Position numbers and translations under genes: made by a program. Under the pieces are notes generated by a model, which was given only the letters and a program-made list of their open reading frames with translations, was not told the DNA's origin and made no database searches. A stretch of DNA of 52,354 nt from Campylobacterota bacterium. GTDB taxonomy: Bacteria; Campylobacterota_A; Desulfurellia; JAADFJ01. How positions within the stretch are numbered: position 1 is the first letter of the stretch; every line of letters begins with the position of its first letter. The DNA lies in contig JAADFJ010000083.1 in assembly GCA_013152955.1 (NCBI GenBank), positions 1-52,354 of the forward strand. The letters are read 5' to 3'. Below, piece by piece: positions 503-52,354 of this stretch.

Positions 503-563
503 ATCCCCCCTATTGGGGGGATGTCCTATAAAGAAAAGATACTGCCTCAATATCATAAGTCAA
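503..563 (-). promoter_or_regulatory. Sigma70-like promoter (TTGACT-16-TATCTT) followed by palindrome ATCCCCCC-N4-GGGGGGAT (503-522)
   Basis: On the minus strand, -35 is the revcomp of 558-563 and -10 is the revcomp of 536-541. The 8+4+8 palindrome sits between -10 and the RBS of 128..466. The same architecture is found upstream of copA (7426-7479). Confidence 0.5.
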
Positions 564-663
564 GGAAAAATTTTTGTAATCAGTGCCTCGATCGGAAGAT
601 ATTCGGAAGGGTTACGCCAGTTATTCGGACCTATAACCTTTCTAAAAACTATGCCTCTTTTAT

Positions 664-1131
664 CTATAATATAATGTAGGTTTCAGGGACGCCGGTAGTT
701 TTGTATCTGTTTTTTACCTTTCCTTTGGTATCAAGCGGAACCGGAAATGACAAATTGAGCTTTTTCATATACTTAAACACAATGTCGGGAACAGCTGCCG
801 TATCCACATTAACAGCCCACATTACAAACTTACCCGGATATTTTTTCATAAGTCTGTCATAAAGCCATTGCATTGCCGGCATCTCCTCTTTACATGCCGG
901 ACACCATGTTGCCCAAAAGTTTATAAACACTACTTTGCCTTGTTCTTTCGCAAGATCGGCTTTTCCTCCCTCAAGCAGCGGAAGAACAAATTCCGGTGCT
1001 CTATCACCTTCTACCACCGGTTTATACTCACCATCGGTACTTCTGTTTGCGACCACATATGCAACCACAGCGGCAACAAACAAAACAGCCAGCAGCTTAC
1101 TTATAATCCCTTTAATATTTTTCTTGTTCAT
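664..1131 (-). CDS. TlpA/ResA-family thiol:disulfide oxidoreductase, copy 1; C-terminus truncated by a frameshift
   Basis: It has an N-terminal TM helix, the FWATWCPACKEEMP (CxxC) motif and the GVPETY cis-Pro loop. Its paralogue 7956..8504 continues about 33 aa further. Here those residues are encoded in another frame (560-664). Confidence 0.8.
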   Translation of the reverse strand: MNKKNIKGIISKLLAVLFVAAVVAYVVANRSTDGEYKPVVEGDRAPEFVLPLLEGGKADLAKEQGKVVFINFWATWCPACKEEMPAMQWLYDRLMKKYPGKFVMWAVNVDTAAVPDIVFKYMKKLNLSFPVPLDTKGKVKNRYKTTGVPETYIIL

Positions 1132-1144
1132 AATATGCTCCTTT

Positions 1145-1978
1145 TCATTGAGCCGTTTCCGAATACGCGTGAAGTCCCGGCAGGATAAATGCGACTCCCC
1201 AATACAAAAATGCCATCGAAAGAAATCCTACGATGGAAAGAAGCGCCGCCTTTTTGCCTTTCCACCCCCTTGCCACTCTTGCATGAAGATAAGCGGCATA
1301 AATCAACCATGTAATGAGCGACCAGGTTTCCTTTGGATCCCAGCTCCAATAGGATCCCCATGTAATATTCGCCCATACTCCGCCAGTTACTATACCAATA
1401 GTTAAAAAGGGCAATCCCCACCATGAAATAGCTTTATAGCTCAGATTATCCAGAGACGAAACATCCGGAATAGCTTCAAAAACAGCAATATTACTCCATT
1501 TTGATTTCGCAAGATATAAAAGAGCTGCTATAAAAGAGATTGCAAACGCCGCATATCCGATAAATGATGTTGAAACATGCACCTCCAGCCAATAAGACTG
1601 CAGAACAGGGTTAAGATATGCATATACTTTATATCTGAACGGCAAGAGATTTGTTACGAAAAAGCTTATAACTATCAAAAACGACACAAATACCCCTACC
1701 GATTTGGTTTTATAACGAAATTCAAGCCACAGATAGGCTGCTGCGAGCAACGCTGTAAAGAATACCATTGATTCATACAGGTTGCTGAACGGGACATGGT
1801 GTATTTCAATCGCTCTTACTATCAGTGTTGCCACATTGGATAAAAATCCTATAAAAAACAGAAGCGTTCCGGTATATCCAAACCATTCTTTCTTAAATAA
1901 AAAATAGATCAGATAAGATATCGCAGCGGCTATATAAAATCCAAATGTTATATCAAAAAATAAAAGCGATAATATCAT
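1145..1978 (-). CDS. ccsA: Cytochrome c biogenesis protein CcsA/ResC (System II), copy 1
   Basis: Polytopic membrane protein with the Trp-rich WGSYWSWDPKETW (WWD) motif. I chose the start MILSLLFFD by alignment with copy 2; it overlaps the ccsB stop as ATGA (1975-1978). The ORF track gives an upstream alternative at 1996. Confidence 0.85.
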   Translation of the reverse strand: MILSLLFFDITFGFYIAAAISYLIYFLFKKEWFGYTGTLLFFIGFLSNVATLIVRAIEIHHVPFSNLYESMVFFTALLAAAYLWLEFRYKTKSVGVFVSFLIVISFFVTNLLPFRYKVYAYLNPVLQSYWLEVHVSTSFIGYAAFAISFIAALLYLAKSKWSNIAVFEAIPDVSSLDNLSYKAISWWGLPFLTIGIVTGGVWANITWGSYWSWDPKETWSLITWLIYAAYLHARVARGWKGKKAALLSIVGFLSMAFLYWGVAFILPGLHAYSETAQ

Positions 1979-3330
1979 GTTTCCTCCCTTAGACAATCTT
2001 TGATTTCCTTGCTGATTCTTTCAAATTCTCTCGTAAACGAATCTTTATGTTTATATGAATTGCCGGATAAAATAAGTCTCTCGGCGTCACTATCGACATC
2101 TATATGGATCCTTCTATAATAAAGATAAAACGATAGCATAAAACCGATTATCATAATTATAGATCCAAACCAAATCAAATTTGCACCCGGATTATATGCA
2201 TATCGAAAATTGACAAAATAAATAGGATTAATTGAATAAGCAACAACCGCCATATCTCCTTTAAATTCATTAATCGAATCACCTGGATATTTTATAAATT
2301 CCCAATCAAAAGAGTTTGGAGCTCCTTTAACCTGTATTCTAACGGCAGGATTGTTATACTCGATTGATTTTGTGGTAATACGCCCGCTAACTTTGTCAAA
2401 ATAAAAATCAGGCACAAAATCGACAACCTTTACACTGTATGGACCTATTTTAGTCCATCTGTTCCATTCGGCCGTAATAGAATTTCCTACAACCTTCTGC
2501 GTTCTTTTGTCATAAAGCAGCAAAACAACGCTTTTAACTCTGTCGTATGATTTTTCATGATATTCATGAAAAAATCTGAAGCCTCCGTAGTCCAGCTTAT
2601 TGTCATGATTGAGCAGCTGCTTGTATACAACCTTGCCATTTTTTATAAAAGAGATCATCGTGTTATACTGTTTATAGCTGCCATCTGGCCAGTAATCTAT
2701 CCAGAAACGATCAAGCTTCATAACAGTATTGATTTCGGGTATTTTCTTGCTGTATCCGGCATCGATGGTAACAAAATTAACAAAATTTTTGTACGAATAG
2801 AGAGCTCCTATAAGTCCTCCCAACAAAATAATCAGTATAGACAGATGAACAACAACCATACCGAATCTGCTTAACACCCCTTTGTGGGCAAATAACGACC
2901 CGTCCGCAAGCTTATAAATCTTATAATGATGAGATTTCAGTATGCCAGATGATTGTATTATTGCGTCATATCGATTTCCGACAGAAACGCTCTCGCTGAA
3001 TTTCGGGTTGATATGAAATTTTTTTGGAACGGCAGTGCTTCTGACAATGGATGGTATTTTCAGTAATGTTGCATATATAAGATTTATAACCAAGAGAACG
3101 GTTGGGACAACCATCCAAAGCGATCCGTATATCTTGTTGATTGATAACTTTAAAATCCATTCGGCTGCCTCCGCTCCATACAGTTTGTCATAATACTGAG
3201 GCAGCTTGCCCTGCTCAACAACGGTGCCAACGATTGCAATCACCGCTATTATAAGCAGGAGGACAATTCCAAATCTTATTGATGAAAACAGGTCTTTCAA
3301 AAATTTTGCGATAACTCTTGCTGCATTCAT
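1975..3330 (-). CDS. ccsB: Cytochrome c biogenesis protein CcsB/ResB (System II), copy 1
   Basis: The 451-aa protein has an N-terminal TM pair, a large soluble domain and a C-terminal TM. It is collinear with its paralogue 9325..10665 and translationally coupled to ccsA. Confidence 0.8.
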   Translation of the reverse strand: MNAARVIAKFLKDLFSSIRFGIVLLLIIAVIAIVGTVVEQGKLPQYYDKLYGAEAAEWILKLSINKIYGSLWMVVPTVLLVINLIYATLLKIPSIVRSTAVPKKFHINPKFSESVSVGNRYDAIIQSSGILKSHHYKIYKLADGSLFAHKGVLSRFGMVVVHLSILIILLGGLIGALYSYKNFVNFVTIDAGYSKKIPEINTVMKLDRFWIDYWPDGSYKQYNTMISFIKNGKVVYKQLLNHDNKLDYGGFRFFHEYHEKSYDRVKSVVLLLYDKRTQKVVGNSITAEWNRWTKIGPYSVKVVDFVPDFYFDKVSGRITTKSIEYNNPAVRIQVKGAPNSFDWEFIKYPGDSINEFKGDMAVVAYSINPIYFVNFRYAYNPGANLIWFGSIIMIIGFMLSFYLYYRRIHIDVDSDAERLILSGNSYKHKDSFTREFERISKEIKDCLREET

Positions 3331-3367: not shown

Positions 3368-3392
3368 CTGTTGTTAGTGCAATAAATAAGAC
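3368..3392 (+). repeat. Orphan terminus of the GAGACC...CAATAAAC element family
   Basis: CTGTTGTTAGTGCAATAAATAAGAC resembles the L end of copy b (GAGACTGTTGTGCAATAAACAT). No partner end is visible nearby. Confidence 0.4.
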
Positions 3393-3490: not shown

Positions 3491-3736
3491 GCGGACGCTG
3501 CATAATAGACATATCCTCAGAAACTAAAGAAAAGGGGGAGATTTAGAAATTAGAATTTGAGGCGCCAACTGGTTAGTTTGAAAATTTTAATTTCCTGAAG
3601 ATTACCCTTTATTCGGCTTCTCTGCTGGCCCTATGAGAGTTCCGGTATGTTTACGCTTAATCTGTTGGTGCCTCGGAAGTTTGCCTTGACTATACCCCAC
3701 AAAAAACTGCAAATGTGCCTATTGTACAGTGATCTC
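3491..3736 (-). mobile_element. MITE-like element, copy a (degenerate termini)
   Basis: Termini are GCGGACGCTGCATAATAGAC ... CCTATTGTACAGTGATCTC. The interior aligns with the reverse complement of copy e, for example CAGAAACTAAAGAAAAGGGGGAGATTTAGAAATTAGAATTTGAGG and GGTTAGTTTGAAAATTTTAATTTCCTGAAGATTACCC. It contains no credible ORF. Confidence 0.75.
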
Positions 3737-4719: not shown

Positions 4720-4755
4720 TTATTCCTCCAATTTTTTTATTTCGTTTCAAGAAAC

Positions 4756-4810
4756 CACCGCACAGTAAACATGTTTACAGAAGCCGTGAATATGTTTACT
4801 GTGCAGGGTG
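4756..4810. repeat. Miniature derivative of the element family: two termini about 20 bp apart
   Basis: CACCGCACAGTAAACAT ... ATGTTTACTGTGCAGGGTG has a 13-bp perfect inverted core. The spacer contains CACAGAAGCCG, as at the R end of copy c. Confidence 0.5.
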
Positions 4811-4946: not shown

Positions 4947-7400
4947 TTAAATCTTTATCTTCCTCAATCTCAATGCATTGGTTATTACAGTAACAGAGCT
5001 AAAACTCATCGCTACAGCCGCGAAAATAGGACTCAGTAAAATTCCAAAAAACGGGTAAAGAACGCCGGCGGCAACGGGAACTCCGAGAGAATTATAAGCC
5101 AATGCCCAAAAAAGATTCTGCTTAATGTTTCTCATTGTTGCTCTGCTCAACCGACGCGCTCTCAAAATACCTCTCAAATCGCCCTTTACTAGTGTTACAC
5201 TGGCACTTTCCATTGCCACATCGGTGCCTGTTCCCATCGCAATGCCAACGTCAGCAGCCGCCAAAGCCGGAGCGTCGTTGATGCCGTCACCGGCCATCGC
5301 TACCACTCTTCCTTCTCCCTGAAGTCTTTTGACAGCATCCGCTTTTTGGTCAGGCAGAACTTCCGCTATTACCTCATCAATTGCAAGCTTATCTGCCACA
5401 GCCTTAGCTGTTATTTTGCTGTCTCCGGTAAGCATAACAATACGAAGTCCTTCTTTGCGCAATTCCTTTATTGCTTCGGCGGTTGTTTTCTTTATAGGGT
5501 CGGCAACACCAATCAACCCTGCAGGTTTATTATCCACGCTTATATAAATCACGGTCTGGCCTTCCAATTTCATTCTGTTCGCCTTATCAATCAGAGTAGA
5601 TAAATCTATTCCTTCTTTTTCAAACAATCTGATATTTCCAAAAGCAACATCGTGCCCTCCAACCTTCCCGATTACTCCTTTTCCGGTTACTGCATCAAAA
5701 TTATCAACCTTTATAATATCTATTCCTCTCTCTTCGGCTCCTTTTAATATTGCCGATGCAAGAGGATGCTCGCTTGCCTGTTCAAGGCTCGCGGCATATT
5801 TAATAACATCGTTCTCGCTGAACCCATTGACCGTATAGATACCGGCAATCTTCGGTTTTCCTTCCGTAATTGTTCCTGTTTTATCCACAACAATGGTGTC
5901 AACCTTTTTCAGCACTTCAATAGCCTCTGCATTTTTGAAAAGAACTCCCATAGAAGCCCCTCTACCCGTTGCCACCATAATAGACATAGGCGTTGCAAGT
6001 CCAAAAGCACATGGACATGCAATAATAAGAACTGCAACTGCGTTGATCATTGCATATATCAATGCAGGCGTTGGACCGAACAGTGCCCACACGACGAAAG
6101 TCACAACGGCTACAGTAAGTACCGCCTCAACAAAATGAGAAGCAACAATGTCTGCAAGCTTCTGAATAGGAGCCCTGCTTCTTTGAGCTTCCGCCACCAT
6201 CTGAACTATCTGAGACAACATAGAATCTGCGCCAACCCTTTCCGCTTTAATAATCATTGTACCGGTTCCATTGACCGTAGCACCTATAACCTTATCGTCC
6301 TTTGTCTTTTCAACAGGTATAGGTTCACCAGTCAGCATAGATTCATCAACTACACTTGAGCCGTCCATTACAACGCCGTCAACAGGAATCTTTTCACCCG
6401 GTCTGATTCTAAGCAAATATCCCGACTCAACATCTTCAATAGGAATATCCTGCTCCTTACCGTCTATTACACGTCTTGCGGTTTTGGGTGCAAGTCCCAA
6501 GAGAGCCTTGATCGCAGCACCTGTTTTGCCTCGCGCCCTCAGTTCCATAACCTGTCCCAGCAGAACAAGGGTAACTATAACCGAAGCCGTTTCGAAATAA
6601 ACTCCTACTTCTCCGGTACCGGTTCTAAATTCACCCAAAAAAATATCCGGGAAAAACATTGCAACAACGCTATAAAGATATGCAACTCCTACACCGCTTC
6701 CAATCAGTGTAAACATATTTAGATTCCAATGCCTGATTGATTGCCAGAAAAGTACAAAAAACGGCCATCCTCCCCAAATTACAACGGGTGTGGCAAGAAT
6801 AAATTCAGCCCATTTCAGCCATTCCAGAACTTCCGGAGAAGCTGAGGCAAGAATTGAGGAGATGACGGGAATAAGTCTGCCCATTGCTATAATAAGAACA
6901 GGTATCGTAAGAATAGCGCTTATTTTAAGTCTGCGGGTCATATTGATAAGCTCCGGATTCTCCTCTTCTTCGGCACTGACGGTTTTTGATTCAAGCGCCA
7001 TGCCGCATTTAGGACAACTGCCGGGCTTATCCTGAACGATTTCCGGATGCATAGGGCAGGTCCATTCGGTTTTTGCAGCAGACAGTTTAGGAACAAGAGG
7101 CTCAAGCGCCATGCCGCACTTAGGACACGAACCGGGACCTTTCTGTCTTATTTCCGGATGCATAGGGCAAGTATAGATCTCTTTAGAGAGAACTTTGGCA
7201 GCAGGAGCGGTACCAATATCACAAACCTCACAACTTTCATCCGTCGATTCGGTTTTGACAACAAACAATTCGGGGTTTTTTACAAACTTGTCATGACAGC
7301 TGGCTGCACAAAAATAGTATTTTTTACCTTTATATGTTTCACTTGCCGCCGCATCGGATTCTTCGATGCTCATGCCGCATACAGGATCTACAACTTTCAT
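4947..7400 (-). CDS. copA: Copper-translocating P1B-type ATPase with N-terminal YHS domain and two CPMHPE...CPKCGM metal-binding repeats
   Basis: Motifs present are DPVCGM...[12 protein letters not shown], two copies of [19 protein letters not shown], the CPC transmembrane motif ([12 protein letters not shown]), DKTGTIT, TGD and [17 protein letters not shown]. Confidence 0.92.
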
Positions 7401-7524: not shown

Positions 7525-7925
7525 GAGACTGTTGTGCAATAAACATATTCACAGTTTTTTATAAGTTTTCTATAGGATGACTTTGTTAATTCCAAGTATT
7601 TCAAAAAAGTCCAAATAGGTCTTATCAAGACGTAAATTACAGGTAACGACAGAGTTATTGTTAAAATTGTACGTAGAAGAAACCTGTCTGCGTGCGAATT
7701 TGATTGAGACTCAGGATGATCGTTTACGGGTTGCGTCCTTATTCTTAATATACCAAGACAACACCGGCGGAAATATTGCCGCCCAACCGGTAGAGCAGTT
7801 GCAGAAAGTATTGTCCGAAACGTCAAAACCCTGCCGCTGAGATTTGCCCCGAATGCGCAAAGGCAAGTTACCGAATCTCGCCCTTTCTTTGACTTCTGTG
7901 TGTCTGTTTGCTGTGCAGTGGTCTC
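7525..7925 (+). mobile_element. MITE-like element, copy b (long variant, about 400 bp)
   Basis: Termini are GAGACTGTTGTGCAATAAACA ... TGTTTGCTGTGCAGTGGTCTC. About 45 bp at each end match copy e, including CCCTTTCTTTGACTTCTGTG. The central ~300 bp is unrelated to the other copies. ORFs inside it look non-coding. Confidence 0.75.
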
Positions 7926-7955: not shown

Positions 7956-8504
7956 CTAATTTTTTGCAATAAGGCTTTCGATGGGCTGATAATTGGTGGG
8001 GTTGTACCAATCTCTTGGTCCTATAACTTTAATGGCAACTATGCCTCTCTTGTCTACAACATAGGTCTCCGGAACCCCGGTTGTTTTATACATCTCCTTC
8101 ACTCTGCCCCTTGTATCCAAAAGAACAGGAAATGACAGGCCGTTATCTTTCATATATTTAATTACAATATCAGGTACGTCTGAAGAATCGATGGAAATAG
8201 CATACATTCTAAATTTGTTAGGGTATTTTTTCATGAGCTTGCTATACATCCATTGCATTGACGCCATCTCTTCTTTGCATGCAGTACACCAGGTTGCCCA
8301 AAAGTTCAGAAAAACAACTTTGCCTCTTTCTTTTGCCAGATCGATTTTTCCTCCACTTAACAGAGGCAAAACAAATGAGGGCGCCTTATCGCCGACCACT
8401 ATAGGCCTGTAATCACTTTTAGAACTGATCACAATATACGCAATTGCAGCTGTTGCAATCAAAGAAATTACAGCAATCTTCACGATAGAATTTCTGTCTG
8501 TCAT
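7956..8504 (-). CDS. TlpA/ResA-family thiol:disulfide oxidoreductase, copy 2 (intact)
   Basis: The start MTDRNSIVKIAV overlaps the ccsA stop (TAATG). It has a TM helix, FWATWCTACKEEM and GVPETYVVDKRGIV... with a full C-terminus. The ORF-track upstream extension overlaps ccsA and is not used. Confidence 0.8.
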   Translation of the reverse strand: MTDRNSIVKIAVISLIATAAIAYIVISSKSDYRPIVVGDKAPSFVLPLLSGGKIDLAKERGKVVFLNFWATWCTACKEEMASMQWMYSKLMKKYPNKFRMYAISIDSSDVPDIVIKYMKDNGLSFPVLLDTRGRVKEMYKTTGVPETYVVDKRGIVAIKVIGPRDWYNPTNYQPIESLIAKN

Positions 8505-9328
8505 TATGCCCTCCCGTAGGAATGAAGCCCCGGGAGAACAAATGAGACTCCCCAATACAGGAATGCCATAGAAAGAAATCCCGCAATCGCCAGAATCGCC
8601 GCCTTTTTGTCCTTCCAGCCTCTTGTTATCCTGGCATGAAGATAAGCGGCATAAATCAACCAGGTAATGAGCGACCATGTTTCTTTAGGATCCCAGCTCC
8701 AGTAGGAACCCCATGTATAATTCGCCCATACTGCACCTGTTGCTATACCCACAGTTAAAAACGGCATTCCCCATGCAATGGATTTATAGCTCAAATTATC
8801 AAGAACCGAAGCATTCGGCAAATATTTTAGCATGAGACCATTATGCCATTCCGATTTTGCAAGATATAAAACAGCCGCTATAAAAGAAATTGCAAAAGCC
8901 GAATAGCCTACAAACATAGTTGCAACATGAATTTCAAGCCAGTATGACTGTAAAGCCGGGTTAAGATTCTCATATACCTTCATTCTGAATGGCAGAAGAT
9001 TTGTTACAAAAAAACTCAGGGAAAGAAAAACGGATAAAAACACTCCAAACATTTTAGTTTTATAACGAAACTCAAGAATAAGATAAATCAAGGCAACAAT
9101 CGCAGAAAAGAATATCATAGATTCATATAAATTGCTAAACGGTGCATGATGAACCTCAACAGTTCTTGCCGTAAGCGTAGCAATATTCGACAAAAAACCT
9201 AAAAAGAATAAAAGCGTAGAATTATACCCTATCCACTCCTTTCTGAACAAAGAGTAGGCGGCATAGGATATGGCGGCAGCCACATAAAATCCGAAGGCAA
9301 CATCAAAGAACATCAGTGAAAATATCAT
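8504..9328 (-). CDS. ccsA: Cytochrome c biogenesis protein CcsA/ResC (System II), copy 2
   Basis: It has the WGSYWSWDPKETW motif and is collinear with copy 1. An ATGA overlap joins it to ccsB copy 2. Confidence 0.88.
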   Translation of the reverse strand: MIFSLMFFDVAFGFYVAAAISYAAYSLFRKEWIGYNSTLLFFLGFLSNIATLTARTVEVHHAPFSNLYESMIFFSAIVALIYLILEFRYKTKMFGVFLSVFLSLSFFVTNLLPFRMKVYENLNPALQSYWLEIHVATMFVGYSAFAISFIAAVLYLAKSEWHNGLMLKYLPNASVLDNLSYKSIAWGMPFLTVGIATGAVWANYTWGSYWSWDPKETWSLITWLIYAAYLHARITRGWKDKKAAILAIAGFLSMAFLYWGVSFVLPGLHSYGRA

Positions 9329-10665
9329 TTTTCCTCCACCTTTTTAAGCGTATTGCAAATTTTCTTAAACTCTTTGGCAAAAAGATCTTTTTGTTTATAT
9401 GAAACGCCCGCAATTAAAAGAGATTTCTCTTCATCGTCAACGGTTATATAGATTCTTCTGTAATACATAAAAAACGACATAATAAATCCTATCACCATTA
9501 TCACAGATCCAAACCAAATCCAATTTGCACCCGGATTCTTTGCATACTGCAAACCGGTGTAATAGATAGGGGTAATTGAGGACACAATAACTGCATCCTT
9601 ACCTCCAAAACTTTTCAGTGTAAAGCCTGGGTATTTAAGAAATTCCCAAATAAACGGAGGGGTTGCTTTTGGGCCTTTGACCTGAAGTCTTACCGCCGGA
9701 TTATTATATTCAAGTGATTTTGAGGTAACATACCCCTTTTTGGCGTCAAAATAAAAATCAGGCACAAAATCAACAATTTTTATATCATACGGCCCTATAG
9801 TGCGCCACTTGTTCCATTGAGCAACTACAGGTTCCCCTACGACATTTTTCTTTTGCCTGTCATAAAGAACCATAACTGCTTCTTTTATTTTATCATACGA
9901 TTTCCCGTATCCGGCCTGAAAAAATCGCATACCGGCATAATCCATAGGATGATTGACATCTATTGTTTGAGTATGCACAACCTTGTTGTTTTTTATAATA
10001 GATAGTTTGCTGTTATACTGTTTAATGCTTCCATCAGGCCAGTAATTCATCCAAAACCTGTCAACCTTTATGGAAGCATTAATTTCGGGAACCGGTTCGG
10101 TATCTCCGGAATCAATGGCTATATAATTTTTATATCCATAAATCGCCCCTAACAGCGCTCCAAGCAAAACAATCAGTATGGACAGATGCACCACAACTGC
10201 GCCAAATCTGCTTATCACGCCTTTATGCGCAAATAACGACCCATCCTCAAGAGTATAGATTTTATAGTGATAAGATTTTAATACGGTTGAGGATTTTTCT
10301 ATGGCAATATCTTTATCTTTTATTAGAACGTTATCATTGATCTTGGAATTATGATGAAACTTCTTCGGCAGAGCAACGCTCTTAATCATGACCGGAAGTT
10401 TCGATAATGTAGCATATATAAGATTTACAATAAGAAGAGACGTAGGAATAATCATCCAGAGTGATCCGAATATTTTGTCGATTGACAATTTTACAATCCA
10501 TCCAGCTGTTGCCGACCCATATAAATCATAGTAATATTGAACAGGTTTTCCCTGCTCAACAAGCGTTCCAGCTATAGCAACGAGCACTATTACAAGAAGA
10601 AGAAAAATTCCCAACTTTGTTGACGAAAACAGATTTTTTATAAACTTAACTATATTTAGCAGCAT
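9325..10665 (-). CDS. ccsB: Cytochrome c biogenesis protein CcsB/ResB (System II), copy 2
   Basis: The 446-aa protein is collinear with 1975..3330, for example in FSS.K/RLGI..LL, HKGV.SRFG and NPGAN.IWFGS. Confidence 0.82.
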   Translation of the reverse strand: MLLNIVKFIKNLFSSTKLGIFLLLVIVLVAIAGTLVEQGKPVQYYYDLYGSATAGWIVKLSIDKIFGSLWMIIPTSLLIVNLIYATLSKLPVMIKSVALPKKFHHNSKINDNVLIKDKDIAIEKSSTVLKSYHYKIYTLEDGSLFAHKGVISRFGAVVVHLSILIVLLGALLGAIYGYKNYIAIDSGDTEPVPEINASIKVDRFWMNYWPDGSIKQYNSKLSIIKNNKVVHTQTIDVNHPMDYAGMRFFQAGYGKSYDKIKEAVMVLYDRQKKNVVGEPVVAQWNKWRTIGPYDIKIVDFVPDFYFDAKKGYVTSKSLEYNNPAVRLQVKGPKATPPFIWEFLKYPGFTLKSFGGKDAVIVSSITPIYYTGLQYAKNPGANWIWFGSVIMVIGFIMSFFMYYRRIYITVDDEEKSLLIAGVSYKQKDLFAKEFKKICNTLKKVEEK

Positions 10666-10678
10666 TCTATCAGTTGTC

Positions 10679-11527
10679 CTACTTAATCTGCTCTAAATAA
10701 CGTCTTGCAGCAAGACCTACAGCCGTTTGAGGACCCAGCTTAATAGCATGCCTAAATGCTGCAGCAGCTTTATCGGTATCTGCGTCTTTTTCAATAAATC
10801 CGTAGGTAAGCCAAATCTGCTGACTTGCCGGTACTTTTTTTGCAACATCGGAAATTATTTTTGCAGCTTGATCTGTTTTTCCGGCATAAAAAAAAGCCAG
10901 AGCAAGATCATTGGCAGCTATAATGTTTTTTGGGTCTTGCATATATGCAAGTTTATAATAAACAGAAGCATCTATAAACTCATTTTTATTGAAATACCAC
11001 TCACCAAGCTTAAAATAATCACCGGGGTTAAATTCGGGCGAAAGGTATGCCGGCATGGTACCATTGGCCATTCTCATAGGTTCTCTGCCTGCTATACGAG
11101 TATGAACATACAGAATTGCTTTCCATCGGTCTTTATATGAAAGTGATTTTTTAAACGACGGCATTGCCGTTCCTGATTTTCCTCGCGTAACAAACCAAAT
11201 ATAATCGGCATTTACATGATGGAGTCCATGCATCGCAAGAGGATGATCTGTTTTATAGCCTCGCTGACCATGACACGATGCGCAATTTCTTTGAAATATT
11301 ATTTTTCCTTCATCAATAGTTTTTTCCGTAACTTTAAACGGCGGCTCAATTCCTGCAAATTCCCATGCAGCACGTTTAATTGGCACAGGATCATCTTTTG
11401 TAGGCACACTCATAGAAAGCGAGGAAACAATCTTGCTCCTTTTAAATTCTATCACCAGAATCACTATCGAAATGATTATCAAAACACCGACTATTTTAAT
11501 GAAAAAAGTCGTCCTCTTTTTTTTCAT
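10679..11527 (-). CDS. Membrane-anchored mono-haem c-type cytochrome fused to a TPR domain
   Basis: It has an N-terminal TM helix and one CXXCH motif (CASCHG). The C-terminal half is made of TPR-like repeats (LGEWYFNKNEFIDASVYYKLAYMQDP..., LALAFFYAGKTDQA...). It is the first gene of the ccs copy-2 operon. Confidence 0.75.
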   Translation of the reverse strand: MKKKRTTFFIKIVGVLIIISIVILVIEFKRSKIVSSLSMSVPTKDDPVPIKRAAWEFAGIEPPFKVTEKTIDEGKIIFQRNCASCHGQRGYKTDHPLAMHGLHHVNADYIWFVTRGKSGTAMPSFKKSLSYKDRWKAILYVHTRIAGREPMRMANGTMPAYLSPEFNPGDYFKLGEWYFNKNEFIDASVYYKLAYMQDPKNIIAANDLALAFFYAGKTDQAAKIISDVAKKVPASQQIWLTYGFIEKDADTDKAAAAFRHAIKLGPQTAVGLAARRYLEQIK

Positions 11528-11627
11528 AACACTGCTCCTTAAATAACAAAACCGCTATAGATAATATAAAAACCCCTCTTTGTTTACAAGGAGAATACTT
11601 AGCAAATTTCATTCTAAAAATGGTAAT

Positions 11628-11888
11628 GAGATCGCTGTACAATAAACGCTTCCACAGAAGCCGAATAAATAGCAAGATTCAGAAATTAAAATCTGATGGA
11701 CTAACCGGTTAGTTTGAAAACTTTTATTTCCTGAAGATTGCCGGTTATTCGGCTTTCCTGCGGGCAATATGAGCTTTCCCATATGCTTATGCTAAACTTC
11801 TTTGATTAATCGATTAATCCTGCAGAAGTTTGCCTTGCCTGTGAAAAAGCTGATATTGCTGTGAAAGTGCTTATTGTGCAGTGGTCTC
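11628..11888 (-). mobile_element. MITE-like element, copy c
   Basis: Termini are GAGATCGCTGTACAATAAAC ... CTTATTGTGCAGTGGTCTC. Its reverse complement aligns along its whole length with copy e and with partial copy f. No ORF. Confidence 0.85.
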
Positions 11889-11993: not shown

Positions 11994-12005
11994 ATAATAT
12001 ATTGA

Positions 12006-12028
12006 GGCCGCTGCGCAATAAACAGCGC
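12006..12028 (+). repeat. Orphan terminus of the element family
   Basis: GGCCGCTGCGCAATAAACAGCGC matches the L-end consensus (compare d: AAGACCGCTGCGCAGTAAAC). Confidence 0.45.
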
Positions 12029-12250: not shown

Positions 12251-12274
12251 GATACCGCTGTACAATAAGACAAC
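12251..12274 (+). repeat. Orphan terminus of the element family, directly after the TolC-like stop codon
   Basis: GATACCGCTGTACAATAAGACAAC; compare c: GAGATCGCTGTACAATAAAC. Confidence 0.45.
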
Positions 12275-22081: not shown

Positions 22082-22236
22082 AAGACCGCTGCGCAGTAAA
22101 CATATTCTTAGCCTTTCATTGAGTGCTTCACGCTAAGAATATCCCGAACTAACACAGATTAGTATTCCAAATTTTAATTCTTAAATCGTACCCTTTCTTT
22201 GACTTTCGCTGATCCCGTTTATTGCGCAGCGGTCTT
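22082..22236 (+). mobile_element. MITE-like element, copy d (short variant, about 155 bp)
   Basis: Termini are (T)AAGACCGCTGCGCAGTAAAC ... GTTTATTGCGCAGCGGTCTT(A). It retains the R-end block AAATTTTAATTCTTAAATCGTACCCTTTCTTTGAC. It starts 3 nt from the annotated dnaA ATG. Confidence 0.8.
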
Positions 22237-22241
22237 ATTAA

Positions 22242-22503
22242 CTGATGTTACGCACTAAACGCAGTTTCAGCAAAAAAAGAAAGCGTTAGATACAAGGAAG
22301 GTTCTTGCCGGCGTAGCCGCAGCTACGGCGGCAAGGTTTCGACGCAGTAGATGATGCTTTATCTTTTTGCCCTTCGGGTGACAATAGTAACGCATAATTG
22401 CTGTGTTAGTGTAACTTGAAGCAGCCGGCTGCTCCTGCGTTGCACTGTCTTGCACTTATACGCTACTATTGCCACTGCAGCTGTGTTTAGTGCGTAACAT
22501 CGG
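22242..22503. mobile_element. Second-type MITE-like element (g) with 7-bp target-site duplication TTATTAA
   Basis: The inverted repeat is CTGATGTTACGCACTAAACGCAG ... CTGTGTTTAGTGCGTAACATCGG, flanked by TTATTAA at 22235-22241 and 22504-22510. The interior has a GC-rich 14-bp hairpin (22304-22335) and a 14-bp long-range pairing (22379-22392 with 22461-22474). The only ORF (62 aa) looks non-coding. Confidence 0.75.
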
Positions 22504-22506
22504 TTA

Positions 22507-23271
22507 TTAATGTATCTTATTTAAAAATTGTTTTAGTTGAGGATTATTATCGTTTGCCAATATTTCTTCAGGTGTAGCAATCTCAGTAATTTTTCCTTGA
22601 TTCATAAATGCGATCCGGTCTGCGGCTGCTTTTGCAAAATCCATTTCGTGTGTTACCACAATCATAGTCATTCCCTCTTTTGCCACCTTTTCCATAACGT
22701 CAAGTACTTCACCTATCATTTCCGGGTCAAGCGCGCTTGTTGCTTCATCAAAGAGCATCAGTTGAGGTTTCATTGCAAGAGCTCTTGCAATCGCAACACG
22801 CTGCTGCTGACCTCCCGAGAGCTGTTCCGGATAAACATCTGCTTTTTCAACTATACCTACCTTTTTAAGCAGAACGGTTGCCAGATCAACAGCATCTTTT
22901 TTATTAACTTTTTTTACCTTTATTTGACCAATTGTAATATTTTCCATGACCGTAAGATGCGGAAAAAGATTGAAATGCTGAAAAACCATACCGATTTTAG
23001 TTCGCAGTTTTGTAGGCTTGGTCTTTTTGTTAAAAATATCGGTTCCTAAAACTTCTATTGATCCTGAATTTATCTCTTCAAGGCGGTTCAGCGTTCTTAA
23101 AAAAGTACTTTTTCCTGAACCTGATGCACCGATAATTACTAAGACCTCTCCATAATCCACATTTAAAGAAACACCGTTTAAAGCTTTGATTTCGTTTGGA
23201 TATACCTTATAAATATTGCGTGCCCGAACCGCATACTTTTTATCTGTCACTTTTTGCCATTTTCCTTTCAA
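22507..23271 (-). CDS. Polar amino-acid ABC transporter ATP-binding protein
   Basis: It has Walker A GASGSGKST, the signature LSGGQQQRVAIARAL and Walker B LMLFDEATSALD. Confidence 0.9.
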   Translation of the reverse strand: MKGKWQKVTDKKYAVRARNIYKVYPNEIKALNGVSLNVDYGEVLVIIGASGSGKSTFLRTLNRLEEINSGSIEVLGTDIFNKKTKPTKLRTKIGMVFQHFNLFPHLTVMENITIGQIKVKKVNKKDAVDLATVLLKKVGIVEKADVYPEQLSGGQQQRVAIARALAMKPQLMLFDEATSALDPEMIGEVLDVMEKVAKEGMTMIVVTHEMDFAKAAADRIAFMNQGKITEIATPEEILANDNNPQLKQFLNKIH

Positions 23272-32521: not shown

Positions 32522-32962
32522 ATGAACGATGTTGAAGTAAGATTGTTGAAAAAAGAAGATTTTGATGCGATTGTAAAAATAGATAGCGAAATAACAGGAG
32601 AAAATCGCATCGATTATTATAAAAGAAAATTTTCTCACAGAGATGCCGAATCAAGAATCGGTACATCGCTTGTAGCACTTATTGATGGAGAACCGGTTGG
32701 ATTTCTTTTGGCCGATCTGTTTTATGGCGAGTACGGAATACCTGATGCCAATGTATTTATAGATACCATCGGGGTCATTCCCGCTTTTAGAGGCAGAAGT
32801 GTTGGGTTTGCGCTTATGGATCAATTAAAAATGAATCTTAAGGCAGTTAATGCGGATAAAATCTATACGCTTGTTGACTGGAGCGATTTTACACTTATCT
32901 CATTTTTTCAACGATCCGGCTTTGCTCCTTCAAGCAGAATTTCTTTAGAATGCAAAATATAG
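32522..32962 (+). CDS. GNAT-family N-acetyltransferase
   Basis: The 146-aa protein has the acetyl-CoA-binding region IGVIPAFRGRSVGFALM (Q/RxxGxG/A). Strong RBS AAGGGGGA. Confidence 0.75.
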   Translation: MNDVEVRLLKKEDFDAIVKIDSEITGENRIDYYKRKFSHRDAESRIGTSLVALIDGEPVGFLLADLFYGEYGIPDANVFIDTIGVIPAFRGRSVGFALMDQLKMNLKAVNADKIYTLVDWSDFTLISFFQRSGFAPSSRISLECKI

Positions 32963-33086
32963 GGCGTCTCTAATAATTCATGAACGACTACTTTGAGCTC
33001 CGAGCCGGCTTCATCTGTGTTGAACGCGCAGGCAGACGGATTCGGACTTTCAATCCGGACGCTCAGAATTAATAGAGGCGCCCTAT
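32959..33086. repeat. 128-bp imperfect palindromic element with 21-bp terminal inverted repeats
   Basis: ATAGGGCGTCTCTAATAATTC (32959-32979) pairs with GAATTAATAGAGGCGCCCTAT (33066-33086) at 19/21 positions. The interior also partly self-pairs (GAGCTCCG / CGGACGCTC). The left arm overlaps the GNAT stop codon. Single copy in this window. Confidence 0.6.
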
Positions 33087-38125: not shown

Positions 38126-38279
38126 GGTATTAAGGATAACTTAGTTAATACTCACTTTGCGCGCTAAATAGTAATTATATAAGGGGGACTATTGATGCAT
38201 GGGTAAGCAGCAGTGCATACTCTAATTTTTCTCAAAGAACTGTTTAACGCGCAGGGTGAACTTATATTGTTATATTATG

Positions 38280-38543
38280 AGACCACTGCACAATAAACAA
38301 ATCCACAACTTTTTATGAGGTTTTCTATAGACAAGGCAAACTTCTGAAGGACTAACGGGTTAATTCAAAGAAGTTTAACGAAAAGTATATGGGAAACCAC
38401 ATAAAGCCCGCAGGGAAGTCAAATAAAGGGTAATCTTCAGGAAATTAAAATTCTCAAACTAACCGGTTAGTACCTCAAATTTTAATTTCTAAATCTCACC
38501 CTTTCTTTGACTTCTGTGAATCCGCTTATTGTGCAGTGGTCTC
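38280..38543 (+). mobile_element. MITE-like element, copy e (best-preserved reference copy)
   Basis: It has near-perfect 20-bp terminal inverted repeats, GAGACCACTGCACAATAAAC ... CTTATTGTGCAGTGGTCTC. An internal long palindrome lies at 38441-38489. No ORF. It sits between a promoter and the benzoate-CoA ligase gene. Confidence 0.88.
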
Positions 38544-40953: not shown

Positions 40954-40969
40954 TTTTTTGCGTGTCCAG

Positions 40970-40992
40970 GATCTGTTTATTGTGCAATAGCT
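40970..40992. repeat. Fragment resembling an element terminus
   Basis: GGATCTGTTTATTGTGCAATAGC contains GTTTATTGTGCA but lacks GTGGTCTC. Confidence 0.3.
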
Positions 40993-41009
40993 TCACTGAA
41001 GAATGAAAA

Positions 41010-52265: not shown

Positions 52266-52354
52266 GAGACCACTGCGCAGTAAGCGTCTTTACAGCGATA
52301 TCTGCTTTTTCACAGGCGAGGCAAACTTCTGCAGGATTAACCGGTTAATTCAAG
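52266..52354 (+). mobile_element. MITE-like element, copy f (L half only; cut by the window edge)
   Basis: GAGACCACTGCGCAGTAAGCG...GGCAAACTTCTGCAGGATTAACCGGTTAATTCAAG aligns with the L half of e and of the reverse complement of c. It begins 1 nt after the cdsA stop. Confidence 0.8.

Follow-up and report, generated by a model that had tools for sequence, protein, structure and literature searches.

Family-1, small non-coding repeat-bounded elements with IS5-type termini in a hydrothermal Hippea lineage

Several bacterial and cyanobacterial MITEs are known together with the IS whose ends they share: Chunjie of Geobacter uraniireducens is paired with the IS5-family ISGur4, RUP of Streptococcus pneumoniae with IS630-Spn1, and the cyanobacterial Nezha with a transposase-encoding IS. 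The elements described here, which we call family-1, resemble Chunjie, Nezha and RUP in being small, non-coding, high-copy, intergenic and hairpin-forming, with target duplications and IS-shared termini, but they differ in the termini themselves, in the host lineage and in the target, which for family-1 is the 5-bp motif ATWAT. Unlike these three, family-1 spans forms as large as 265 bp, with three helices, and as small as bare hairpins of 49 bp, and to date only other genera have yielded its presumed partner. The Correia elements (NEMIS) of Neisseria are likewise dense intergenic MITEs (~100-160 bp) with long inverted repeats and hairpins in transcripts, and we know of no autonomous partner for them in their host genome. 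In contrast to family-1, with its 5-bp duplication and candidate transposase lineage, they duplicate TA and carry unrelated 26-bp repeats. REP/REPIN sequences share with family-1 the short palindromic intergenic repeats, the high copy number and a hairpin kept by paired changes. However, a REP unit is a palindrome tied to an HUH enzyme, and movement of the REP/RAYT or IS200/IS605 type leaves no target duplication, whereas family-1 shows a 5-bp duplication and ends of the DDE-IS type. Finally, the IS66 family carries GTAAGCG at its very terminus and makes an 8-bp duplication. An earlier note, made from the sequence of this DNA, had been reminded of IS66 by such a motif, but in family-1 GTAAGC stands at repeat positions 15-20, 14 nt inside the repeat, where it simply represents the frequent A/G version of AATAARC, and 5 bp rather than 8 are duplicated; an IS66-derived element was thus rejected.

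The window, that is, the whole 52-kb stretch of DNA that was analysed (39% G+C), contains six family-1 copies together with solo ends, bounded by inverted repeats of ~20-29 bp (GAGACCACTGCACAATAARC; Table 1). Copies were recovered by BLAST and nhmmer with the focal copy and with a profile built from full copies, and all six copies listed in the earlier note were found again, the focal one on the strand given there, although it begins one nucleotide further upstream than had been thought. The 20-nt terminus GAGACCACTGCACAATAAAC has nine matches in the window at three mismatches or fewer, compared with 0 expected from shuffles, and 12 termini are present at up to four mismatches. The inverted repeat reaches ~29 bp (GAGACCACTGCACAATAAGCnnnTTCACAG), as seen in the self inverse match between positions 1-29 and 237-265 of the focal copy. 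Among the terminus-only fragments reported before, two proved to be solo termini and two are only weak matches, while the one placed near 4756-4810 does carry family termini but is slightly longer and consists of two termini in a degenerate hairpin. The L and R blocks are common to the copies, as had been claimed. No plausible ORF of at least 80 aa was found inside the window copies and no transposase in the window, as the note had also stated. All copies are intergenic and lie amid housekeeping genes, including those for ResB, a DsbA-like protein, Cu-ATPase, AhpC, cytochrome c, a TolC-like protein, enoyl-CoA hydratase, acyl-CoA synthetase and CdsA. These properties, with those described below, identify a dense, ORF-less, mobile family bounded by terminal inverted repeats, in other words a MITE. 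At the locus of the older, degenerate full-length copy (3491..3736), an element is present in the related MAG too.

Table 1. Coordinates of family-1 and second-family features (window positions unless another locus is named)
Feature	Coordinates	Strand	Evidence or remark
Focal full-length MITE copy, 265 bp	38279..38543	+	nhmmer 279 bits
Left terminal inverted repeat, core 20 nt, ~29 nt extended	38279..38307	+	Self inverse match; first 14-20 nt the same as the IRL of IS5-family ISs
Right terminal inverted repeat	38515..38543	+	Self inverse match
Internal hairpin A, includes L block	38312..38405	+	Folds; helices 2-5; compensatory changes at 11 pairs
Internal hairpin B, 3' arm is the R block	38413..38518	+	Self inverse match 137-236; helices 6-9, both sides changed at 8 pairs
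Left flank ATTAT, one copy of the 5-bp target duplication	38274..38278		
Right flank of focal copy, ATGAA	38544-38548		Diverged
Older degenerate full-length copy, 246 bp	3491..3736	-	BLAST/nhmmer 3491/3496-3736; R end degenerate
Degenerate 60-bp mini-hairpin	4751..4810		Both termini and nothing else
Composite copy	7525..7925	+	Family-1 ends alone match; foreign interior
Full-length copy, 261 bp	11628..11888	-	Clean empty site in L024
Solo terminus (remnant)	12004..12024	+	
Internally deleted copy, 155 bp	22082..22236	+	Part of hairpin B kept
Solo terminus (remnant)	40969..40994	-	
Left part of a copy	52266..52354	+	Cut by window edge; abuts cdsA stop codon
Weak terminus matches	12251-12271 and 3368-3392		At least 5 mismatches
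Second-family copy	32961-33083	-	TATAG at both flanks
Second-family copy, truncated	46092 onward	+	
Second-family copies at other loci, many	e.g. L009 6179-6339, L055 4507-4666		

Complete copies of family-1 fall into size classes of 49-55, 93, 136-159, 211, 261-265, 401-427 and 581 bp. The 49-55-bp forms combine a 30-nt end with an end of 19-22 nt; several types of this junction recur at unrelated loci, and an unusual 52-bp variant is identical at two different loci, which indicates that the bare hairpins spread after the deletion that produced them. Many solo termini are truncated remnants. The long forms hold an element of a second family, with inverted repeats of its own (GGGCACTTCTGTTAAT...), inserted at two different positions, and the interior of the composite copy in the window corresponds to a decayed nested element of this kind plus extra sequence. 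The nesting also occurs the other way round, as a 50-bp family-1 mini copy sits within a second-family MITE. We propose that the 261-265-bp form would be the main full-length variant, from which internal deletions would have produced the forms of 211, 147-159, 93 and 49-55 bp, the smallest of these being bare terminal hairpins that continued to spread, while insertions of the second-family MITE would account for the 400-580-bp forms.

Other small repeats were noticed in the same regions. The second MITE family is ~120-190 bp long, has inverted repeats GGGCACTTCTGTTAAT(T/C)C(T/G)TAARCG and occurs alone as well as nested in family-1 copies. A third ORF-less, repeat-bounded element of ~270 bp (window 22237-22510) directly abuts the 155-bp family-1 copy; its ends are ACTGATGTTACGCACTAAACGCAG ... 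CTGTGTTTAGTGCGTAACATCGGT, and its terminus recurs at four other loci. A short G+C-rich palindrome, ACCTGTCTGCGTGC...GCACGCAGACAGGT, was found at 18 loci (window 7682-7695, L075 ~1580-1545 and L100 ~9830-9860 among them), in one case inserted within a family-1 copy, and possibly represents a fourth mobile hairpin of small size. The window also contains two versions, ~70-84% identical, of a block encoding AhpC-like, CcsA, ResB and cytochrome c proteins (506-3291 and 7958-11551); MITE copies border both of them, and the block is single in L098.

Family-1 is not restricted to this window. A scan of species-representative genomes for the terminus yielded more than 97 loci, mainly in two MAGs labelled 'uncultured Hippea sp.' (CAJVZA01 and CAZPBP01), with other matches in a 'Campylobacterales' MAG (CAZAPZ01) and in a few short contigs binned elsewhere. 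At up to four mismatches, at least 93 termini are present in 317 kb of CAJVZA01 and at least 54 in 152 kb of CAZPBP01. The scan of metagenomes added 120 loci, mostly from one assembly set (VAOW to VAPG), and the family is found on many vent-metagenome contigs. Therefore, as the earlier note had supposed, the repeat is dispersed genome-wide and across related genomes and is not a local one. The window is syntenic with contigs of both Hippea MAGs at 88-92% identity and thus derives from a sister population; Hippea is a member of the class Desulfurellia of the Campylobacterota, the phylum that also includes Sulfurimonas and Aliarcobacter. Numerous MAG contigs terminate exactly at a family-1 terminus, as expected of a high-copy repeat, which breaks short-read assemblies. 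Eleven lone terminus matches, which lie in unrelated genomes mostly of high GC content (Rheinheimera, Actinomycetota and others), lack a partner terminus and were for this reason counted as chance, for a pattern of 16+4 bases in 596 Gb. A BLAST search of the element against the PLSDB plasmids gave no match. In the literature, searches combining Hippea with MITE or inverted repeat returned nothing relevant, and the terminus string matched primers only; in this literature we found no previous description of the family for this lineage.

The flanks of the copies reveal the target. Repeats of 20-29 bp stand at both ends of 72 complete copies. The flanking positions follow the logo A-T-W-A-T on both sides, with 80-87% agreement per position. 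The TAAT that the earlier note had seen ahead of the L end is real and is a portion of this 5-bp consensus. Flank pairs were compared in 67 non-redundant complete copies having ATWAT at both sides, of which 25 show identical pentamers and 12 complementary centres; where the centre is G or C, the pentamers are direct in three of four. The central base differs in about one-third of the ATWAT flank pairs, which fresh duplication does not predict. Copies with complementary centres have more mismatches between their terminal repeats, and judging from this divergence they are probably the older class.

The comparison of orthologous alleles indicates how much sequence is duplicated. At least six filled/empty pairs are clean, with the pentamer present exactly once in the empty allele. 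At the window copy 11628-11888, the filled allele reads AAAATG GTAAT (261 bp) ATAAT TGAATAA and the empty allele in L024 AAAATG ATAAT TGAATAA; the other pairs are L185 (filled) and L076 (empty), L203 and L028, L034 and L125, L048 and L069, and L058 and L048. A duplication of 2 bp (AT or TA) or of 4 bp is incompatible with these empty alleles, which, taken alone, fit either 5 bp or 3 bp, the latter if the flanking T and A belong to the element. The 3-bp option amounts to an IS3-type reading (TG...CA ends with a TWA duplication), which was prompted by a decayed IS3 on L100. It was rejected, as position -1, at 87% agreement, is no better conserved than the other flank positions at 80-84%, and the bases just outside two reliable ISs with the same ends (see below) are T/T in L223 and A/A in L245, forming direct 5-bp repeats and not complementary ones. 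Since these bases outside GAGACC / GGTCTC are identical on both sides in each IS, GAGACC is the outer limit of the element and 5 bp are duplicated, and the same ambiguity is thereby settled for the MITE.

Insertions also differ between close relatives. L133, with 90.5% identity across the adjoining 5.6 kb, lacks the focal copy, and the joined flanks of the window at this site are 6 nt longer than the L133 empty allele. The sites in L024 orthologous to copies 7525-7925 and 11628-11888 are both without an element. In L098, at ~77% identity and with the same gene order, the intergenic regions are compact and 22 kb of syntenic DNA hold zero copies. Such insertion polymorphism between ~90%-identical genomes indicates fairly recent movement. 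Other sites show unusual configurations. Compared with L046 (7309-7455) and L217 (1476-1622), L129 has an element-free allele that holds both pentamers (ATCGT ATTA..), a state that would suit a footprint left by excision better than a site that had never been occupied. At L100 (VAPK010290349.1, ~7030-7060, minus strand), each terminus is cut to its outer 10 nt, ATTAT GAGACTACTG CAGTGGCCTC ATAAT; going by its sequence, this short site could have arisen by extreme deletion or be what an excision left behind. The end of the same contig (9800-10242) is the decayed IS3-family element mentioned above, with an orfA remnant and an integrase C-terminus.

The earlier note could not place the termini and regarded the elements as a new family. 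In our searches, the ends and the 5-bp duplication matched a widespread lineage of IS5-family ISs, and such a match, as the note itself had allowed, makes family-1 an ordinary element. The ISs of this lineage are ~1.5 kb long, with the ends GAGACCACTGCRCAGTAAC, A/T-rich 5-bp duplications and a 417-418-aa DUF772 + DDE_Tnp_1 transposase, whereas the family-1 size classes of 49-265 bp have no transposase gene. In a marine contig (L115), the IS measures 1508 bp, has the ends GAGACCACTGCACAGTAAAC / GAGACCACTGCATAAT and contains a single 417-aa ORF, whose product matches NCBIfam transpos_IS5_4 (NF033581) with 198 bits against a cut-off of 140, as well as Pfam DUF772 and DDE_Tnp_1. At E <= 1e-10, 393 homologues of this protein were retrieved, most of them 418 aa long, located on 1.5-2-kb contigs and labelled at the source as IS5 family transposase. 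Ahead of the L115 element lies a piece of the element's own transposase gene (1-76 vs 524-600), and on the right flank this target is not resumed; either an insertion into another copy of itself or a chimeric assembly would explain this arrangement.

All eight IS types inspected have the same ends on both sides, GAGACCAC(T/A)GC(A/G)CA.., and the outermost 12-20 nt of the MITE are identical to them. Besides L115, examples are found on contigs tied to an 'Epsilonproteobacteria' protein name, on a 710-kb long-read contig (L223, direct TTAAT duplication), as two multi-copy elements in other metagenomes, in a Sulfurimonas single-cell genome (a truncated copy, with the flank AAATAAT next to GAGACC) and on plasmid pACIB of Aliarcobacter cibarius H743 (L245; NZ_CP043858.1, 212590-214118). 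The pACIB element is complete, has a direct ATATA duplication, is annotated as 'IS5 family transposase' and interrupts another transposase gene; with family-1 it shares the outer repeat (GAGACCACTGCA...), the A/T-rich 5-bp duplication and the phylum. The duplications of the ISs, known from two reliable insertions only, are TTAAT (L223) and ATATA (L245), compared with ATWAT for the MITE.

From these observations, we estimate a probability of about 0.75 that family-1 consists of MITEs of an uncultivated Hippea-lineage vent bacterium that are moved in trans by a transposase of this IS5-family lineage. In such a scheme, each non-coding copy would be bounded by 20-29-bp inverted repeats beginning with GAGACCACTGCA, the DDE transposase of the ~1.5-kb ISs (417-418 aa, DUF772 + DDE_Tnp_1) would recognise these termini in trans, and it would insert the copies at A/T-rich ATWAT pentamers, duplicating those 5 bp. 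The mobilisation in this particular host is what we infer from shared ends and duplications at the sequence level.

The search for a partner within the host lineage itself bears on this reading. In 1.3 Mb of Hippea-lineage sequence, which consists of MAG fragments, we found neither a transposase of this lineage nor any element with these ends exceeding 600 bp; short-read MAGs often lose ISs. A tblastn search of all loci with the IS transposase retrieved two sequences only, the truncated copy from Sulfurimonas and, at the end of a Hippea contig, an IS that is unrelated. The latter was rejected as a partner, being IS5/IS1182-like with different ends (GAGGCTGTTGAAAAA). It comprises the start of a transposase gene at L062 5335-5658 (end of CAJVZA010000010.1), with the left end GAGGCTGTTGAAAAACTCC, and is cut by the contig end; its presence in a Hippea MAG means that this lineage also hosts other elements of the IS5 superfamily. 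Apart from synteny, no segment of more than 330 bp is multi-copy among the loci. Pairs of termini 0.6-3.5 kb apart, L115 excepted, all enclose host genes (ThiH-like, response regulator, GGDEF-EAL, BioB, SecA-like and acyl-CoA dehydrogenase-like) and no transposase, and no transposase adjoins any terminus in the Hippea-lineage loci. Two further transposase candidates were discarded, as they came from unrelated metagenomes.

Within the elements, BLAST detected no similarity between the MITE and seven IS types past the outer 12-20 nt; hence a simple deletion from any of the ISs examined does not account for the MITE. On sequence grounds, it could derive from an unseen, Hippea-specific relative, or it could have arisen around fortuitous ends. 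The short extent of this similarity, the lack of a partner in the same lineage and the many degenerate copies and solo ends would also suit the idea that the match to the IS5 termini is convergent or irrelevant, and that another transposase moves the family or that the family is immobile and decaying. However, we consider this unlikely, because the outermost 14-20 nucleotides are identical in all eight IS types, the same unusual 5-bp A/T-rich duplication occurs in the two reliable ISs (L223 and L245), these ISs share the phylum and the kind of habitat with the MITE host, and the insertion polymorphism at ~90% genome identity points to fairly recent movement. Movement in trans by an IS5-lineage transposase thus remains the preferred explanation.

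The fold of the full-length form deserves separate consideration. The 265-bp copy folds as a Y, in which the terminal repeats make the outer stem and two long internal hairpins make the arms, and its stability relative to shuffles is high (z between -9 and -10) for either strand, as RNA or as DNA. In an alignment of ten full copies, 92% of the cells are paired, and 24 of the 91 pairs have changed at both sides, vs 13.5 +/- 2 in column shuffles and 3-5 with slid partners; in hairpin B, for instance, AAAGGG/CCCTTT in one copy corresponds to AGCCTG/CAGGCT in another. G-T mismatches (84) and A-C mismatches (62) at paired, symmetric positions show no clear strand preference. Changes on both sides without strand bias indicate that the palindrome is actively maintained, but there is no obvious sign that a transcript of one strand is what is being kept. 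For a transposase to recognise the ends, compensatory changes in the internal hairpins are not required.

This stable and covarying fold, together with the co-orientation of four of the six window copies with their flanking genes, could also be expected of structured-RNA genes or modules (a small RNA, an mRNA-stabilising or processing hairpin, or a riboregulator) whose fold is selected on the transcript and whose spread is secondary. Nevertheless, we regard this as very improbable. Both strands fold equally well, the two kinds of mismatch reveal no strand asymmetry, and the most numerous derivatives have spread without both internal hairpins. Copies are also present or absent between close relatives and lie beside unrelated genes. 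Rfam, in which the family has no named counterpart either, gave 0 matches in the window at the gathering threshold, and permissive searches of the focal region returned chance hairpin matches of 19 bits at most. A consensus scan of the focal copy found neither a sigma-70-like promoter nor an intrinsic-terminator-like site, so the outward promoter that the earlier note had imagined in the R block gained no support. Still less credible, despite the many bare 49-55-bp hairpins and a strand-neutral upkeep of the palindrome that would suit an ssDNA substrate, is the spread of REP/REPIN-like palindromes by a RAYT (HUH tyrosine transposase) via single-stranded hairpins, given the 5-bp target duplication with clean empty sites, a terminal unit that is not itself palindromic, termini equal to those of DDE-type IS5 elements, and no HUH gene adjoining termini in the loci inspected.

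For MITEs moved by an IS5-type transposase, the conserved Y-shaped fold would then reflect a constraint at the DNA level, or a correction between the arms, rather than an RNA function. Selection on the three-helix fold of the 261-265-bp form itself seems unlikely to us. Were it to operate, folding (as ssDNA or RNA) could be needed for efficient copying, which would be an unrecognised requirement in the movement of IS5-type MITEs; alternatively, the host could have recruited the transcribed hairpins, e.g. for mRNA processing or stability in operons. Candidate causes of the maintenance are a better transposition of foldable copies and transcription in both orientations. Template switching between the arms of a palindrome is a known mutational process by which one arm is corrected against the other, and it offers an equally simple alternative that is purely mutational; it would also push the flanking ATWAT copies towards complementarity.

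Family-1 is thus an element of a known kind, a MITE with IS5-type ends, of which we found no description for this lineage, and it does not challenge current understanding. Its sole mildly unusual feature, which is well supported, is the strand-neutral compensatory upkeep of its internal hairpins. For the hydrothermal Hippea lineage the family is nonetheless of practical weight, since it fills a few percent of the intergenic space and breaks short-read assemblies at nearly every copy; cataloguing it together with the nested second and third families would improve annotation and assembly and provide strain-level markers. A MITE whose likely transposase is known from neighbouring genera only bears on the persistence or the cross-mobilisation of such elements, and the strand-neutral evolution of its palindromes makes the family a small natural test bed for selection versus arm correction.
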